Assembly: GCA_049700315.1 (NCBI GenBank)
Contig: JBNAVN010000003.1
Location: forward strand, 8,724 to 72,723
Length of the DNA: 64,000 bases
Origin: a bacterium
GTDB taxonomy: Bacteria; Hydrothermota; Tepidihabitantia; SM23-42; JAOAFX01
Reading direction: 5' to 3'
Shown: positions 6,240 through 46,552 of the stretch, piece after piece
Layout: each line of letters opens with the position of its first letter
Numbering within the stretch: the stretch's first letter is position 1
Position numbers and translations under genes: made by a program
Notes under the pieces: generated by a model
What the model was told of the DNA's origin: nothing
The model's database searches: none
Seen by the model: only the letters and a program-made list of their open reading frames with translations

Positions 6240-8678
6240 GTGAAGAAGTTTTTACTACTTGATGCACATTCTTTGATATTCCGTGCCTATTTTGCATTTA
6301 TCAAAAATCCACTCAGGAATTCCAAAGGGCAGAACACCTCAGGAATTTATGGCTTTTTGAATTCAATAAGAAAAATAAAAACAAAATTTGCAAGTGATTA
6401 TATAGTTCTTGCATTTGATGCCCCTGACGAAACCTTCAGAGACAGATTATTCAAAGAATACAAGGCAACCCGTCCAGCCCCACCAAGGGATATCCCATTT
6501 CAGATTGAAAAGGCAAAAGAGATCAGCAAGTTTTTAGGCATGGTAGACTTTGAAATTCCCGGTTTTGAAGCAGATGACATACTTGCAACCCTGACGAAAA
6601 AATTAAAAGATAATGGTGAGGTCTATATCGTGAGTTCTGACAAAGACCTTATGCAACTTATCTCTCAAAATGTCTTTGTTTATGATGCAGTCAATGACAT
6701 AATCTATGATGCAGAAAAGGTGAGAGAAAAATTTGGTGTCCTGCCTGATAGAATTGGAGATTATCTCGCACTCTGCGGTGATTCAATTGACAATGTTCCC
6801 GGTGTTCCTGGCATCGGTCCCCATAGAGCAATAGAAATCCTGAAAAAATATCCGGACCTTAATCAGGCACTGGAAAAAGAACCAAAACTTGCTGAGCACC
6901 GTGAGACCCTGATGTTATCAAGAAAACTCGTGGCACTGGAAACAGATATTCCAATTGAAATAAATCCTGAAGCATTGAAGGCAAAAACCCCGGATGTCAA
7001 AGGTATTTTTGAAATTCTGTCCGAACTTGAATTCCATTCTTTGATAAAAGAATTTGCTGAAAGATATAATACCGAAAGTATAATCAGAAAAACAGATATC
7101 TCAAAGGCAGAAATAAAAAAGTATGCAGGAATCCATGTTGACGAAGACAATTTCTTTGTGAGTTTCAATGAAAATGAAGTCTATGTCGCATCTATAGAAG
7201 ATTCATTCAATATTATTTCCAGACCAGATATAACAAAGATTGGCTACGACCTGAAACAGGTGATAAAAACTGGACATTTGATATCACCTTTATTTGATGT
7301 GAAGATTGCGGTCTGGCTTATTGACCCGAACATAAAGAATAATGAATTTGAAGATATCTGTTTGAAGTATTTGAATTGTTATTGTGCGCCAACACCCGAA
7401 GCAATTTCCACACTTTCTCTAAAGCTCTATCCTATTTTGCAAAAAAAACTTGAGGAACTTAATGAAGTTGATCTCTACCGAGAAATTGAAGAACCCCTCA
7501 TATTTGTCCTTGCGCAAATGGAGAAAAGAGGCATAGGCATTGATGTTAACTACTTGAAAGAATTGAAGAAGCATATTGAAAGGGATATTACGACACTGGC
7601 TGACGAGTGCTACAGGATTGCCGGCAGTGTATTCAATATCAATTCACCAAAGCAACTCGCTCATATTCTGTTTGAAAAACTCAGACTGACACCATTGAAA
7701 AAAGGGAAATCCCACTATTCAACAGATTTTGAAGTGCTCCAGCAATTGAGTTTGAAACATGAATTACCAAAAAAAATCCTTGAATATCGGGAACTGGCAA
7801 AAGTTTCAAGCACCTACATTGACCCTTTGATTGGATTTGCAAGAAACAACAGGATACATACAACCTTCAACCAGACCGGCACGGCTACAGGCAGATTATC
7901 TTCAAACAATCCCAATATCCAGAACATCCCCATCCGCAGTCGCCTGGGTAATGAACTGCGAAAGGCATTTGTAGCACAGAAAGGATTCATGCTTGTTTCA
8001 GCTGATTATTCCCAGATTGAATTGAGAATACTTGCCCATGTCTCAAAAGACAGAAATCTTATTGAAGCATTCAAATCCAGTCGTGATATCCACAATCACA
8101 CTGCCTCATTGATATTTGCTCTTAGCGAAGATGAAGTTGATGACGAAAAAAGGCGCATCGCCAAAGTTGTTAACTATGGGTTAATATATGGAATGAGTGA
8201 CTATGGACTTGCTCAGGAACTCGGAATTTCCGTTGAACAAGCAGGGCAATTCATACAGTCCTATTACGGTTTGTATCCTGAAGTTGATAAATGGCGGCTA
8301 TCAGCAATATCAAGTGTTGAGCAAAAAGGTTATACAGAGACACTCTTCAGCAGAAAAAGACCTATCCCTGAAATAAATTCTGAAAATTATAATCTCAGAG
8401 AATTTGCAAAAAGACTGGCAATCAATACACCAATCCAGGGGACCGCTGCGGATTTGATTAAGATGGCAATGATTGAGGTTGAAAAGAGATTAAACCAGGC
8501 ACATTTCAAAAGTGGACTTCTATTATCAATCCACGATGAGTTGTTGTTTGAAATAGAAGAAGAAAGAACTGATGAAGCAAGAGAAATCATAAAGAAGACA
8601 ATGGAAAATGTCTGTGAGTTCAATGTGCCGATTGTAGTAAATATTAATATCGGAAAAAACTGGGCAGAAGCCCATTGA
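6240..8678 (+). CDS. polA: DNA polymerase I
   Basis: N-terminal 5-prime nuclease domain (LLLDAHSLIFRAYFAF). C-terminal family A polymerase motifs (RRIAKVVNYGLIYG, DYSQIELR). 812 aa. GTG start 5 nt after a TATAAT. Confidence 0.9.
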   Translation: MKKFLLLDAHSLIFRAYFAFIKNPLRNSKGQNTSGIYGFLNSIRKIKTKFASDYIVLAFDAPDETFRDRLFKEYKATRPAPPRDIPFQIEKAKEISKFLGMVDFEIPGFEADDILATLTKKLKDNGEVYIVSSDKDLMQLISQNVFVYDAVNDIIYDAEKVREKFGVLPDRIGDYLALCGDSIDNVPGVPGIGPHRAIEILKKYPDLNQALEKEPKLAEHRETLMLSRKLVALETDIPIEINPEALKAKTPDVKGIFEILSELEFHSLIKEFAERYNTESIIRKTDISKAEIKKYAGIHVDEDNFFVSFNENEVYVASIEDSFNIISRPDITKIGYDLKQVIKTGHLISPLFDVKIAVWLIDPNIKNNEFEDICLKYLNCYCAPTPEAISTLSLKLYPILQKKLEELNEVDLYREIEEPLIFVLAQMEKRGIGIDVNYLKELKKHIERDITTLADECYRIAGSVFNINSPKQLAHILFEKLRLTPLKKGKSHYSTDFEVLQQLSLKHELPKKILEYRELAKVSSTYIDPLIGFARNNRIHTTFNQTGTATGRLSSNNPNIQNIPIRSRLGNELRKAFVAQKGFMLVSADYSQIELRILAHVSKDRNLIEAFKSSRDIHNHTASLIFALSEDEVDDEKRRIAKVVNYGLIYGMSDYGLAQELGISVEQAGQFIQSYYGLYPEVDKWRLSAISSVEQKGYTETLFSRKRPIPEINSENYNLREFAKRLAINTPIQGTAADLIKMAMIEVEKRLNQAHFKSGLLLSIHDELLFEIEEERTDEAREIIKKTMENVCEFNVPIVVNINIGKNWAEAH

Positions 8679-8721: not shown

Positions 8722-8919
8722 GTGATCACCAGAGAAACGAAGGTTGAGAATATTCTCAGAGAATTTCCCGAGAAGATACCTATCTTTGTACAAATGGGTC
8801 TACCCTGCTTTGTCTGCGGTGAACGGTTCTGGGGCACAATTGAAGAATTGTGTCAGAGATATGATATTGAACCAGAAACATTATCAAAAGAATTGAACAG
8901 AATCAATAAAGGGGTGTGA
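8722..8919 (+). CDS. DUF1858-type small redox/disulfide domain protein (hybrid-cluster-protein-associated domain family)
   Basis: 65 aa with GLPCFVCG...ETLEELC core typical of DUF1858. GTG start 5 nt after a TATAAT. Confidence 0.5.
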   Translation: MITRETKVENILREFPEKIPIFVQMGLPCFVCGERFWGTIEELCQRYDIEPETLSKELNRINKGV

Positions 8920-9773
8920 ATATGCAAAAATGGTTATATTGTCCGGTCTGCAGAGGAAGTTTGGTGAAGAAACAATCAGTAATTCTTTGCAAAAAGTGTG
9001 GCTGGCAACATTATAAAAATCCTCTGCCTTCAGTTGCCGGATTTATAATGAATGCTGATGATGAGATATTATTGATCAAACGCGGTGCTGAACCAGAAAA
9101 AGGCAGATGGGCACTACCTTCGGGCTTTATTGAACCCAATGAAACACCAGAGCAGGCAGTATTGAGAGAATTGAAGGAAGAAACTGGGTTGAATGGCACG
9201 ATAAAAAAGATGCTCGGAATTTATGTTGAACCAACAAGGTTCTATGGAGATGTGCTTCTCATTGGTTATGAGATTGAAGGCACCGGTGGCAAGATCAGAC
9301 CCGGCTCAGATACCACAGAAGTCAATTTCTTTTCCAAAAACAAACTGCCAAGAATTCCATTTTTGAGCCATCGCGAAATCATCAATCAGGGAATCAATAG
9401 TCAAACAGATAATGTCTATGTTGAAGTCCTGAAATCAAAGATTTCTGAAGCAGTCATTACTGATACAATTCTCTTTTATAAGGGAAGTATGGGTATAGAT
9501 GCAAAAATTATGCGGTCAGCGCACATTAAGCCCGGAGAAAAGGTGCAGGTTTTAAATTATGATAATGGCGAAAGGCTTGAAACCTATGTTATCCCTGAAA
9601 AACCAGATTCAAGGAAGTTCATCCTTTATGGTCCGGCTTCATTAAAAGGTAAGAAGGGACAGAGATTATGCATACTCTCTTATGCATTTGTTGCCCAGAA
9701 TAAAGCAGAATTTTTTAAGCCGAGGATTGTCATCCTTGATACAAAAAATTTCATCAAAAAAATCAAATCCTAA
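8916..9773 (+). CDS. Fusion protein: zinc-ribbon NUDIX hydrolase (NudC-like) N-terminal domain plus aspartate 1-decarboxylase (PanD) C-terminal domain
   Basis: CPVCRG...CKKCGW zinc ribbon. Nudix box GRWALPSGFIEPNETPEQAVLRELKEETG. C-terminal 110 aa align with PanD, including the Gly-Ser self-processing site (YKGSMGID), NG.R..TY and GPASL regions. One continuous ORF, no internal start for the PanD part. Confidence 0.7.
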   Translation: MNMQKWLYCPVCRGSLVKKQSVILCKKCGWQHYKNPLPSVAGFIMNADDEILLIKRGAEPEKGRWALPSGFIEPNETPEQAVLRELKEETGLNGTIKKMLGIYVEPTRFYGDVLLIGYEIEGTGGKIRPGSDTTEVNFFSKNKLPRIPFLSHREIINQGINSQTDNVYVEVLKSKISEAVITDTILFYKGSMGIDAKIMRSAHIKPGEKVQVLNYDNGERLETYVIPEKPDSRKFILYGPASLKGKKGQRLCILSYAFVAQNKAEFFKPRIVILDTKNFIKKIKS

Positions 9774-10701
9774 AAAATTTATATATGGACCGGTCCCTTC
9801 GCGACGGCTGGGCTATTCATTAGGAATTGATTTACTCATTCCCAAGACCTGCACTTATAATTGTATTTACTGCCAGTTAGGAAAGACAACAAATCAGACA
9901 CTGAAGCGAAAAAAATATGTTCCATCAAGAATGATTTTGAAAGAACTGAGCCATTTGTTAAGAACAAAAACCCGCATTGATTATATCACATTTTCCGGTT
10001 CTGGTGAACCAACCCTGAGTTCAGATATTGGACTATTAATAAAGAAAATTAGACGACTCACAAAAATCCCTGTTGCAGTTATAACTAATTCTTCCTTAAT
10101 GCACAAAAAAGATGTCCAGAAAGGTCTATTAAGTGCGGATGTCATCCTGCCCACACTCACCACGGTTCAGGAAAAAACATTCAGAAAAATTCATCGGTCA
10201 ATCCCGGCGATAACTGCCAAAAAAATCGTTAATGGGTTGATTCGGTTTCGCAAATGTTACAAAGGGAAAATCTGGCTTGAGGTAATGCTTATCAAAGGGT
10301 TGAACGATTCAAAACAGGAAATTCAGGCATTAAAAAAGATAATAAGAAGAATCAAGCCTGATAGAATCCATCTAAATACTGTAGTAAGACCACCAAGTGA
10401 GAAATTTGCCCGACCCTTATCCATATCTGAACTGAAACGGATAAAGAAAATCATCGGAAGGAATTGCGAAATTGTAGCAGAATTCAAGAAACCAGGCAAT
10501 GTTTCAAAATTTAAAGACAATAATGAAATGGTCTTACAATATTTAAGACGAAGACCTGCAACCCTTATTGATATGAACAAAAGTCTGGGCATCAATCAAA
10601 GTGAATTGATAAAAAATCTTGAAAGACTCCTAAAATCCAGAAAAATCAAAAAGAAGAGATATGGAGGTAGAATTTTTTATGAAACAGTCAAAGATAGTTG
10701 A
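9682..10701 (+). CDS. Radical SAM protein (function unknown)
   Basis: CTYNCIYC (CxxxCxxC) cluster motif preceded by GPVPSRRLGYSLGIDL. True start likely near 9760-9775 (non-ATG), as the tracked ORF overlaps the upstream gene by 92 nt. Confidence 0.65.
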   Translation: MHLLPRIKQNFLSRGLSSLIQKISSKKSNPKKFIYGPVPSRRLGYSLGIDLLIPKTCTYNCIYCQLGKTTNQTLKRKKYVPSRMILKELSHLLRTKTRIDYITFSGSGEPTLSSDIGLLIKKIRRLTKIPVAVITNSSLMHKKDVQKGLLSADVILPTLTTVQEKTFRKIHRSIPAITAKKIVNGLIRFRKCYKGKIWLEVMLIKGLNDSKQEIQALKKIIRRIKPDRIHLNTVVRPPSEKFARPLSISELKRIKKIIGRNCEIVAEFKKPGNVSKFKDNNEMVLQYLRRRPATLIDMNKSLGINQSELIKNLERLLKSRKIKKKRYGGRIFYETVKDS

Positions 10702-11206
10702 ACCATATGATTTGTCAAAAGAGGAACTTCTGGAGTTTATTCCTGACCTTGCCAAAAACTGGCTTGCCCATGATGGACTCTGGTTTTTGTGTATTGAACA
10801 GAAATACGGTATTGAATCAGCAATTGAACTTGATAAAAAGGCGTGGGAAAAATTTACAGTAATTGAAGCAGAAAGAATAATGAAACGGCTGAATATAGAG
10901 CCCAATAGCGGTATTACAGGTTTGATTCAGGCGCTAAAATTCCGGCTGTATGCATTTATCAATAAGCAGGAAATTATTGAAATCTCTGACAAAAGATGTG
11001 TGTTGAGAATGAATAACTGCCGTGTGCAGGAAGCGAGAAAGCGCAAAGGTCTGCCTGATTTTCCCTGCAAGCCTGTTGGTATAGTGGAATATGCCTATTT
11101 TGCCCAAACCATTGATAGCCGTATTAAGACCAATTGTATTACCTGTCCCCCAGATTCCCATCCCGACGATTATTTCTGCGCCTGGGAGTTTGTACTTCAG
11201 GATTAA
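10661..11206 (+). CDS. Hypothetical protein with C-terminal Cys/His-rich motif
   Basis: 181 aa with WLAHDGLWF and CITCPPDSHPDDYFCAWE. Overlaps and is co-oriented with the radical SAM gene. Alternative start at 10679. Confidence 0.4.
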   Translation: MEVEFFMKQSKIVEPYDLSKEELLEFIPDLAKNWLAHDGLWFLCIEQKYGIESAIELDKKAWEKFTVIEAERIMKRLNIEPNSGITGLIQALKFRLYAFINKQEIIEISDKRCVLRMNNCRVQEARKRKGLPDFPCKPVGIVEYAYFAQTIDSRIKTNCITCPPDSHPDDYFCAWEFVLQD

Positions 11207-34891: not shown

Positions 34892-35242
34892 ATGATAAAG
34901 GGCATCGGCATTGACCTGATTGAAATCAGCCGATTTTCAAAAGTTTCTGATGATTTTCTAAAACAGGTATTCAATTCCCAGGAAATAGAAAATACAAGAA
35001 ACAACCCCCTGTTATCAAGTATCAAATTCTGTTTGAAAGAATCAGTTTTGAAGGCGCTTGGTAAGGGATTGTATTTTGGTTTTTTATGGCATAAGATAAA
35101 ATTAGAAAATGATGAAGTAAATATTTCAGAATCGCTCAGGCAAAGATTGAGTGAAAAAAATATTATACATACCTGTGCAGGCAATTCAAAGAAGTATGCC
35201 TGTGCAATTGCAATAATTGAAGATAAGCAGGAGGTTTTTTGA
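34892..35242 (+). CDS. acpS: Holo-[acyl-carrier-protein] synthase (4-phosphopantetheinyl transferase, AcpS type)
   Basis: GIGIDLIEISRF and KESVLKALGKGL motifs of AcpS-type PPTases. 116 aa. Confidence 0.7.
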   Translation: MIKGIGIDLIEISRFSKVSDDFLKQVFNSQEIENTRNNPLLSSIKFCLKESVLKALGKGLYFGFLWHKIKLENDEVNISESLRQRLSEKNIIHTCAGNSKKYACAIAIIEDKQEVF

Positions 35243-45521: not shown

Positions 45522-46073
45522 ATGAAGATTATTGCAGGTTTAAATAAGGGTAGATATCTAAAAGTCGCAAAGTCCGGTATGCGACCAACAAGGGCAATTG
45601 TACGATCCGCAATATTTAATATACTGCGCGACCACATTTGCAATGCCAATCTAATAGACATATTTGCAGGTACTGGTGCCCTCGGATTAGAAGCATTGTC
45701 CCAGGGTGCCAAATCTTGTGTTTTTGTTGAAAAAAATCCCAGAATACTACTGAACAATATCAAGCACCTAAAATTACAGAAAAAAATACAAGTCATCAAA
45801 CAGGATTTCAGACCTGCGTTGAAATATCTCCGTGGGGAAAAATTTGATATTGCATTCATTGATCCACCATACAAAGGAGAATTTGTTTCTGAGACTCTAA
45901 AGTTAATCTGTTTTTATCAACTGATAGAAGAACAAGGTATTATAGTAGCTGAATATGCACGATTTAATCGCTTGGTAATACCACAAGAATATATTGTGTT
46001 GAAAGAAAAAAGATATGGTGATACCTCAGTATCATTTCTAAAATTGAAATATAATGACAGGGGGCAGGCATGA
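45522..46073 (+). CDS. rsmD: 16S rRNA (guanine966-N2)-methyltransferase RsmD
   Basis: MKIIAG...RPT...RSAIFNIL and DLFAGTGALGLEALS (SAM motif I), DPPY motif IV. Start moved to ATG 45522, downstream of the terminator hairpin. Confidence 0.75.
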   Translation: MKIIAGLNKGRYLKVAKSGMRPTRAIVRSAIFNILRDHICNANLIDIFAGTGALGLEALSQGAKSCVFVEKNPRILLNNIKHLKLQKKIQVIKQDFRPALKYLRGEKFDIAFIDPPYKGEFVSETLKLICFYQLIEEQGIIVAEYARFNRLVIPQEYIVLKEKRYGDTSVSFLKLKYNDRGQA

Positions 46074-46552
46074 AAAGAGCAGTTTATGCAGGAACATTTG
46101 ACCCAATTACTTATGGCCATATTGATGTTATTGAGCGGGCAACAAAAATTTTTGATAAGGTAATAATCGGCGTAAGCAATGGTCCCAAACAAACCCTCTT
46201 CGCCCTTGAGGAAAGAATTTCCATAATTAAAATCATTTACCGACACAACTCCAGGGTTGTTGTTCAGGGATTTTCATCATTGCTTGTTGATTTTGTAAAA
46301 TCAGTCTCAGCGAAGACAATTATCCGCGGAATCAGGGCAGTTTCTGATTTTGACTATGAGTTTCAACTTGCCCTGATGAATAGAAAATTGAATGCCGAGA
46401 TTGATACATTATTTCTTATGCCTTCCGAAAAATATTTTTTTATCAGCTCATCTCTGGTTAAAGAAATTGCCTTTCTCGGTGGTGATATTTCTAAACTTGT
46501 ACCCCCAGTGGTGCAACGTAGTTTAGCGAGAAAACTAAACCTCAAACCTTGA
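46070..46552 (+). CDS. coaD: Phosphopantetheine adenylyltransferase
   Basis: AVYAGTFDPITYGHIDVI (T/HxGH nucleotidyltransferase motif). 160 aa. Confidence 0.85.
   Translation: MKRAVYAGTFDPITYGHIDVIERATKIFDKVIIGVSNGPKQTLFALEERISIIKIIYRHNSRVVVQGFSSLLVDFVKSVSAKTIIRGIRAVSDFDYEFQLALMNRKLNAEIDTLFLMPSEKYFFISSSLVKEIAFLGGDISKLVPPVVQRSLARKLNLKP

Follow-up and report, generated by a model that had tools for sequence, protein, structure and literature searches.

A 64,000-nucleotide stretch (the window) of contig JBNAVN010000003.1 of the bacterial GenBank assembly GCA_049700315.1 encodes a protein in which a zinc-ribbon Nudix hydrolase is joined to aspartate 1-decarboxylase (PanD). The comparison of genomes described below shows that this Nudix-PanD fusion is a genuine, vertically conserved gene of candidate division WOR-3 that encodes a two-enzyme polypeptide. 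Neither domain is new, and GenBank already contains the protein under an automated name: entry MGB9720049.1 (283 residues), designated 'MAG: aspartate 1-decarboxylase [bacterium]' (MAG, metagenome-assembled genome), is identical to the product read from the ATG at nucleotide 8922. Part of the interest lies in a predicted PanD zymogen whose 'pro-peptide' is itself an enzyme, and the greater part in the link that the fusion provides within an orphan gene module of several phyla. A preliminary description of this DNA, prepared from the sequence, had not recognised the arrangement as one already described. This agrees with our literature searches, in which no paper was found on the fusion, on the Tyr72/Cys86 PanD subtype to which it belongs, on its gene cluster or on the DUF6125 protein encoded there; searches for Nudix with aspartate decarboxylase, PanD with Nudix and DUF89 with aspartate decarboxylase gave nothing relevant.

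The fusion occupies one open reading frame (ORF) of 285 codons counted from a GTG, at 8916-9773 on the plus strand, and the frame is nowhere interrupted, as the preliminary description had stated. Translation probably begins at the ATG at 8922, just 5' of which lies a GGGG-rich stretch; this start gives a protein of 283 residues and 32.0 kDa. Searches with Pfam models, the check proposed at that time, recovered both domains: NUDIX (PF00293) at residues 38-144 with an E-value of 4e-20, and Asp_decarbox (PF02261) at residues 169-280, matching model positions 3-114/115 with an E-value of 1e-31 and 109.7 bits against a cutoff of 25. The PanD part had been said to lack an internal start codon. This holds for ATG and GTG, neither of which occurs in frame in the region that separates the two domains, but one in-frame TTG (Leu150, nt 9363) exists there, the only start-type codon of this region, with no obvious ribosome-binding site. 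The base composition shows no break across the junction (9350-9450), and a scan for promoters and terminators gave no result above chance.

In a scan of one genome per species of the GTDB, the unbroken fused frame was found in 39 species genomes, six of them closed chromosomes, with a length of 284-308 codons from stop to stop; 18 metagenome contigs also carry it intact. The titles of the 39 genomes are WOR-3, Ca. Stahlbacteria, TA06 DG_78 or simply 'bacterium'. Because the uninterrupted fusion recurs in all these independently assembled genomes and in the contigs, it is untenable to regard it as an assembly chimera or as two genes joined by a sequencing frameshift. The even base composition over the junction also speaks against a chimera, and we give this explanation practically no credence. 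The search for the same fusion in related genomes, likewise proposed beforehand, bears out the claim of a genuine fusion through the recurrence of the intact frame across the phylum.

At least 120 protein clusters contain the fusion. Of 312 relatives in the database, the best 120 (54-100% identity, 264-299 residues) all have both Pfam domains, and wherever an organism is named among these 120 it is candidate division WOR-3; the automated names of the relatives are 'aspartate 1-decarboxylase' or '8-oxo-dGTP diphosphatase'. Among 1.84 billion representatives (50% identity), the fusion appears as one full-length representative and one fragment. Neither another PanD fusion nor one in reverse order was found among the ten two-stretch matches that were checked, all of which are tandem Nudix-Nudix proteins. 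Since the representatives contain one family and the other matches checked are tandem Nudix proteins, the fusion is monophyletic and limited to a single candidate phylum, in which it is widespread enough to count as a core gene. Of the two halves, PanD is the better conserved in every one of the 39 genomes (median identity 65%, against 53% for the Nudix half).

The PanD domain

In the AlphaFold2 model of the fusion (predicted local distance difference test, pLDDT, 90.4), each domain is predicted with confidence but their mutual orientation is not, as indicated by a predicted template modelling (pTM) score of 0.52. Counted from the ATG, the model has a helix at residues 148-160 and a strand that starts at residue 166. 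Comparison of the PanD half with the crystal structures 3OUG, 1PPY and 2C45 using Foldseek gave template modelling (TM) scores of 0.96-0.98 and root-mean-square deviations of 0.7-1.2 Å, and the structural alignment with 3OUG from Francisella tularensis contains 48% identical residues. The KGSMGID sequence holds Gly190-Ser191, which corresponds to Gly24-Ser25 of E. coli PanD, and Thr223-Tyr224 corresponds to Thr57-Tyr58. The Gly-Ser site and the TY motif to which the preliminary description had drawn attention are both present.

Residue conservation was counted over 121 aligned family members. In E. coli numbering, Lys9, Tyr22, Ser25, Arg54, Thr57 and Tyr58 are invariant (121 of 121), Gly73 and Asn112 are invariant or nearly so, and Ala75 is also conserved. 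Gly24 is kept in 116 members and is Ala or Ser in the other five. Lys9 and Arg54 are substrate-binding residues of PanD (PMC3314653). The invariance of these two residues together with Thr57 and Tyr58 argues for aspartate or a very aspartate-like compound as substrate.

The fused domain has Tyr at position 72 and Cys at position 86. The nearest stand-alone PanDs (115-125 residues, 50-57% identical to the PanD half, some of them labelled Elusimicrobia) also contain Tyr72 and Cys86; remoter stand-alone PanDs are canonical, with His11, Asn72 and Ile86. As Tyr72 and Cys86 are shared with the closest stand-alone PanDs, the fused domain derives from a pre-existing Tyr72/Cys86 subfamily.

The zinc ribbon and the Nudix domain

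The N-terminal half contains a Cys4 zinc ribbon and a canonical Nudix box, as had been described. The box, spelled G70-x5-E76-x7-R84-E85-x2-E88-E89-x-G91, conforms to the consensus GX5EX7REUXEEXGU, and its invariance argues for a real pyrophosphohydrolase. For many homologues, the Zn_ribbon_Nudix domain PF14803 is on record. The best NCBIfam match to the N-terminal half is the NAD+ diphosphatase NudC (PRK00241, 46 bits against a cutoff of 158), with an aligned span of residues 97-236 in NudC. In the Foldseek comparison, the zinc ribbon and Nudix part matches best 3CNG and E. coli NudC, including the NudC complex with dephospho-coenzyme A (dephospho-CoA; 7E44), in agreement with the NudC-like arrangement proposed previously. 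The Nudix fold also matches 3SMD.

One half of the protein might be non-catalytic, with the Nudix domain acting as a ligand sensor that regulates the cleavage or the activity of PanD, or the PanD domain serving as an uncleaved scaffold. A precedent is the regulation of PanD by its CoA-binding partner PanZ in E. coli (PMC4410942). This explanation would also fit the replacement of Asn72, the hydrogen-bond partner of Ser25 in the zymogen, and the five members in which Gly24 is replaced. However, E76, R84, E85, E88 and E89 of the Nudix box, and Y22, S25, T57, Y58, K9 and R54 of PanD, are invariant in the 121 sequences. A non-catalytic half is hard to uphold because the catalytic and processing residues of both halves do not vary, and we consider it very improbable.

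The gene neighbourhood

The fusion belongs to a conserved gene cluster with the order DUF1858, Nudix-PanD, radical S-adenosylmethionine (SAM) enzyme and DUF6125, in which a gene for a DUF89 phosphatase may be inserted behind Nudix-PanD. The DUF1858 gene comes first in the cluster, and its stop codon runs into the beginning of the fusion ORF. At the other end, the radical SAM gene and the final part of the fusion ORF overlap; the true start of the radical SAM gene is probably a TTG near 9727-9757. Among the genomes with the fusion, a DUF1858 gene is found within 300 nt upstream in 31 of 38, a radical SAM gene downstream in 32 of 33 and a DUF6125 gene downstream in 25 of 27. In 14 of 37 genomes, the fusion and the radical SAM gene are separated by a gene for a DUF89/ARMT1-like phosphatase.

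The same genes are linked outside WOR-3. A stand-alone orthologue of the zinc-ribbon Nudix protein, 45-55% identical, is directly followed by DUF89 in 27 of 38 such loci, which are labelled Aminicenantes, Clostridia/Eubacteriales MAGs and Acidobacteria; genes for radical SAM and DUF6125 proteins are sometimes next. In loci L054-L092, the Nudix-DUF89 pair is kept without PanD, and a class-V aminotransferase-like gene is located a few kilobases (kb) downstream in 22 loci.

When metagenomes were scanned with stand-alone PanDs of the Tyr72 type as queries, 56 such genes were obtained. DUF89 is directly downstream of PanD in 11 of 47 and Nudix in 4 of 47, a radical SAM gene is directly upstream in 7 of 48, and in three cases the gene of a YggS-like pyridoxal phosphate protein is adjacent. 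A module partner is adjacent to 24 of the 56 genes. At none of the 56 loci is panB or panC beside the Tyr72-type PanD, and panC is absent from all 56 loci, whereas the Asn72-type PanD encountered in the same scan belongs to panB-panC-panD operons at three of five loci. In locus L060 (1590-5333) of an uncultured bacterium, the genes for a radical SAM enzyme, a YggS-like protein, a 128-residue protein, PanD, a zinc-ribbon Nudix protein and DUF89 occur in this order, all unfused, the last three being consecutive. The PanD of this locus is of the canonical His11/Asn72/Ile86 type, and the Nudix gene shows an overlap of 17 nt.

Other genes recur at the loci of stand-alone Tyr72/Cys86 PanDs (L093-L172, L008, L010 and L011). 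These are a gene for an Mrp/ApbC-like Fe-S carrier ATPase in 19 loci and one for peptide deformylase in 12. Two of the closest stand-alone PanDs, P0228 and P0243, have lgt and thioredoxin genes as neighbours on contigs too short for the wider context. De novo clustering of the neighbouring ORFs singled out Mrp/ApbC, YggS, peptide deformylase and class-V aminotransferase as recurrent; none of these identifies the pathway.

Genes of the four or five families shared by these loci are arranged in at least five orders in several phyla, a pattern that points to functional coupling rather than inherited synteny. Inherited synteny alone would not lead one to expect such variety. The linkage has a bearing on an accidental origin of the fusion, according to which two unrelated housekeeping enzymes, a generic Nudix 'sanitiser' and PanD, whose genes were neighbours in an ancestral WOR-3 bacterium, became one protein when a stop codon was lost, and act independently of each other. 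Such an event would be consistent with the uncertain geometry between the domains, whose pTM is low despite a pLDDT of 90, with the weakly conserved linker, and with WOR-3 genomes that have the Nudix protein without PanD (loci L052, L058, L061, L062 and L069). Arguing against it are the several phyla in which genes for Nudix, PanD, DUF89 and radical SAM proteins neighbour one another in varied order and the retention of the intact fusion in all 39 genomes, so that we regard an accidental joining as improbable.

Proposed function

The best reading of the sequence is that the fusion is a bifunctional enzyme that would work with a DUF89 phosphatase. The name 'aspartate 1-decarboxylase', under which databases list it, probably falls short of its full function. 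By analogy with the PanDs studied so far, the proenzyme is predicted to cleave itself between Gly190 and Ser191, whereby Ser191 would be converted into the pyruvoyl cofactor. Starting from the ATG at 8922, cleavage would yield a beta chain of 188 residues (21.2 kDa), consisting of the zinc ribbon, the Nudix domain and strand 1 of PanD, and an alpha chain of 95 residues (10.8 kDa). The preliminary description had envisaged a Nudix enzyme of 180 residues as the non-pyruvoyl chain; that this chain bears the Nudix domain is retained, but its predicted length is 188-190 residues. Because the first 24 residues of PanD are built into the barrel as one of its strands, the Nudix enzyme should not be lost on cleavage. 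The 21-kDa beta chain would stay non-covalently bound to the 11-kDa alpha chain, and the tetramer typical of PanD would bear Nudix domains. In this assembly, the PanD half would convert L-aspartate to beta-alanine, the Nudix half would cut a nucleoside-diphosphate-linked compound, and the DUF89 phosphatase, whose gene is either adjacent or at another site of the genome, would finish the phosphorylated Nudix product.

As for the pathway, we tentatively favour, with somewhat less than even confidence, a role in the turnover or damage control of CoA or 4'-phosphopantetheine coupled to a resupply of beta-alanine, an appraisal that includes the mechanistic frame just outlined. The only known product of PanD is a precursor of pantothenate (PMC3975893). 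Nudix 7 takes the ADP moiety off CoA and leaves 4'-phosphopantetheine (PMC5989533), from which the DUF89 domain of PANK4 removes the phosphate (PMC9352595). The resemblance of the zinc ribbon and Nudix part to the dephospho-CoA complex of NudC points in the same direction. In one community, no abundant members other than WOR-3 and Aminicenantes MAGs were scored complete for the pantothenate pathway (PMC10766756). The preliminary description had likewise implied a connection with beta-alanine and CoA metabolism, and had supported it with coaD and an AcpS gene in the window. Both genes are present (coaD at 46070-46552, with a product that shares 51% identity with CoaD of E. coli, and an acpS-like gene at about 34949-35221), but they are 25-37 kb away, outside the cluster and unlinked to the fusion, and have no relevance to this question. 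The connection itself is kept as one of two live options, the PanD half being atypical and the neighbours not being pan or coa genes.

Several observations weigh against a role in CoA metabolism. The PanD half does not reach the NCBIfam panD equivalog TIGR00223 (86.6 bits against a cutoff of 106), and throughout the family it departs from canonical PanD by the replacement of His11 with Thr or Ser, Asn72 with Tyr, Ala74 with Pro and Ile86 with Cys. In published lists of PanD residues, His11, Ala74 and Ile86 are strictly conserved or line the active site, and Asn72 forms a hydrogen bond with the Ser25 hydroxyl in the zymogen. In the Nudix half, the SQPWPFPxS motif of NudC is missing and Y-x-E-P-T-x-x-Y-G stands in its place. 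The motif of the CoA pyrophosphatases (NUDT7/PCD1/NudL) is likewise not found, as the sequence there is LLIKRGAEPEKGRWALPSG, with a different spacing and different residues. This NuCoA motif, LLTxR[SA]x3Rx3Gx3FPGG, is located upstream of the Nudix box. Its absence does not exclude substrates of the CoA type because NudC, which also lacks it, hydrolyses dephospho-CoA. The DUF89 protein of the cluster is of the PH1575/AF1104 type, which in the 2016 work of Huang et al. was reportedly assigned to subfamily I, acting on nucleotides, and not to the PANK4 type. Furthermore, in 171 loci, which together amount to 1.74 Mb, neither coaD, coaBC or coaE nor panB or panC occurs in the 6-10 kb around the module, and the only panB-panC neighbours there belong to PanD of the Asn72 type; in the window and its flanks, panB and panC were not found. 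Lastly, a role in CoA turnover leaves the radical SAM and DUF6125 genes unexplained.

Alternatively, the five-gene module might make or destroy a nucleotide-derived metabolite, and the Tyr72/Cys86 PanD-like domain would then not be primarily an enzyme of pantothenate synthesis. In such a pathway, a viperin/MoaA-like radical SAM enzyme would modify a nucleotide, the Nudix domain would remove pyrophosphate or a nucleoside monophosphate, and DUF89, as a phosphatase of the nucleotide type, would remove the last phosphate. DUF6125 would bind a small-molecule intermediate, and the PanD-like half would decarboxylate aspartate or an aspartate-like amino-acid moiety. This scheme is a serious rival, though the less probable of the two. 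It is in line with the genomic company of Tyr72-type PanD, which is next to panB or panC in none of the 56 loci and next to a module partner in 24, as against the pan operons in three of five loci of the Asn72 type, and with the absence of CoA genes from the flanks of the module. It also agrees with the proximity of the deviating positions 11, 72 and 86 to the active site, with the PH1575-like DUF89 and with the strongly conserved DUF6125, for which a ligand-binding, V4R-like fold is predicted. The sole families that the radical SAM protein resembles are viperin (47 bits) and MoaA (41 bits); it aligns with their models over its full length, though weakly, and these scores are far under the family cutoffs. 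Moreover, we know of no enzyme of the PanD family that uses another substrate, and the aspartate-binding residues Lys9, Arg54, Thr57 and Tyr58 are all invariant. In L060, a canonical PanD occupies the same position beside Nudix and DUF89, which suggests that the module requires no more than ordinary decarboxylation of aspartate.

Taken as a whole, it is conceivable but rather unlikely that the Tyr72/Cys86 PanD, the zinc-ribbon Nudix protein, the PH1575-type DUF89, the viperin/MoaA-like radical SAM enzyme and the V4R-like DUF6125 form an undescribed pathway in which PanD has a role beyond or besides the supply of beta-alanine for pantothenate. The same reservation applies to the extent of that pathway, which would span WOR-3 and the MAGs labelled Aminicenantes, Clostridia/Eubacteriales and Acidobacteria. 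If it exists, the WOR-3 fusion would be the 'Rosetta stone' that ties its components together.

Comparison with known enzymes

PanD is a textbook example of a self-processing enzyme and a drug target. To our knowledge, all characterised PanDs are small stand-alone proteins with a cleaved-off chain of 24 residues. The fusion resembles them (PF02261; 3OUG, 1PPY/1AW8) in the full-length double-psi beta-barrel, the Gly-Ser site and the catalytic residues. It differs from them by the N-terminal Nudix enzyme of 165 residues, through which the beta chain would comprise 188 residues instead of 24, and by its location beside DUF89, radical SAM and DUF6125 genes rather than panB and panC. The stand-alone Tyr72/Cys86 PanDs (P0273-P0278, P0228) share with it the residues of the subtype and DUF89, zinc-ribbon Nudix, radical SAM and YggS as neighbours, but they are unfused, vary at residue 11 (N, Q, D or H) and are uncharacterised.

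NudC is an NAD(H) and dephospho-CoA pyrophosphatase and a decapping enzyme of NAD-RNA. In NudC (5IW4, 7E44) and in the uncharacterised 3CNG, as in the fusion, the Cys4 zinc ribbon directly precedes the Nudix fold; the fusion lacks the N-terminal domain of about 100 residues and the SQPWPFPxS motif of NudC. PANK4, a eukaryotic fusion of pantothenate kinase with a DUF89 4'-phosphopantetheine phosphatase, offers an analogy only, in that an enzyme of the CoA pathway is tied to a DUF89 metabolite phosphatase, as a module that both builds and cleans up would require (PMC9352595, PMC4921024). The partners here are PanD and Nudix, the DUF89 protein is PH1575-like and encoded by a separate gene, and the arrangement is not homologous. 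In the PanD-PanZ(CoA) complex of enterobacteria, PanD is likewise physically tied to a protein that binds a nucleotide cofactor. PanZ, however, has a GNAT fold and is neither covalently linked nor hydrolytic, in contrast to the covalent Nudix domain with its intact catalytic residues.

The predicted formation of a 21-kDa enzyme as the cleaved-off chain makes the fusion a natural test of how much cargo zymogen processing tolerates, and it offers a way of tethering a second activity to the PanD tetramer. Proteins of the Tyr72/Cys86 subtype are annotated automatically as 'aspartate 1-decarboxylase' and yet keep a genomic company different from pantothenate genes. The scoring of WOR-3 and similar uncultured bacteria as producers of pantothenate may rest on this predicted assignment only. 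The fusion and its neighbours also provide testable partners for families to which no role has been assigned, namely subfamily I of the prokaryotic DUF89 proteins, DUF6125 and an orphan radical SAM enzyme.

Features of the cluster and its surroundings

Table 1. Location of the fusion, its parts and the adjacent cluster genes in the window
Feature	Position	Strand	Evidence and remarks
Small DUF1858 protein ('hybrid-cluster-protein-associated redox disulfide domain')	8722..8919	+	Pfam E 7e-9; TIGR03980 46 bits
Nudix-PanD fusion ORF	8916..9773	+	285 codons from GTG; ATG 8922 the likely start
Cys4 zinc ribbon (C9, C12, C25, C28)	8940..8999	+	Each Cys kept in 115-121 of 121 members
Nudix fold	9027..9347	+	Pfam NUDIX E 4e-20
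Nudix box	9123-9191	+	G70, E76, R84, E85, E88, E89 the same in all 121 members
Linker of about 5 residues from the last Nudix helix to PanD strand 1	9402..9416	+	AlphaFold2 secondary structure; weakly conserved
PanD double-psi beta-barrel domain, Tyr72/Cys86 subtype	9420..9755	+	Pfam 110 bits; Tyr238 at 9627-9629, Cys252 at 9669-9671
Gly190-Ser191 codons, predicted self-cleavage and pyruvoyl site	9483..9488	+	Counterpart of Gly24-Ser25 in E. coli PanD
Radical SAM enzyme (CxxxCxxC) with winged-helix-like C-terminal tail	9682..10701	+	Pfam Radical_SAM E 2e-16
DUF6125 protein, last conserved gene of the cluster	10661..11206	+	Pfam DUF6125 E 2e-84

The polA gene (6240-8678, same strand) ends 44 nt upstream of the cluster. 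In distant WOR-3 genomes (L001, L002 and L003), the flanks are syntenic and contain genes for an MGMT-like DNA_binding_1 protein, RtcA, an ATP-dependent DNA ligase, Fpg, an FmdE-domain protein and NifU_N. Conservation of the flanks among such distant genomes suggests that the cluster is located in a stable stretch of the core genome and not on a mobile island. An anti-phage defence system was considered and rejected: PADLOC returned only weak generic matches, of the Nudix protein to PDC-S07 (48 bits) and of the radical SAM protein to pVip (47 bits), and the core character of the cluster, syntenic across the phylum and not island-like, speaks against defence.

For neither the radical SAM protein nor the DUF6125 protein did a search of the PDB find a relative by sequence. 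DUF6125 proteins are 62-86% identical within WOR-3, hits named Aminicenantes and WOR-1 are similarly close (P0390-P0509), and the database hits number 5866. The AlphaFold2 model of the DUF6125 protein (pLDDT 90, pTM 0.84) resembles the V4R/Bet3/H-NOX fold of the phenol sensors MopR, PoxR and DmpR with a TM score of about 0.5. Five invariant cysteines (C120, C136, C159, C162 and C173) might serve as metal ligands. Some sources name DUF6125 'L-2-amino-thiazoline-4-carboxylic acid hydrolase'.

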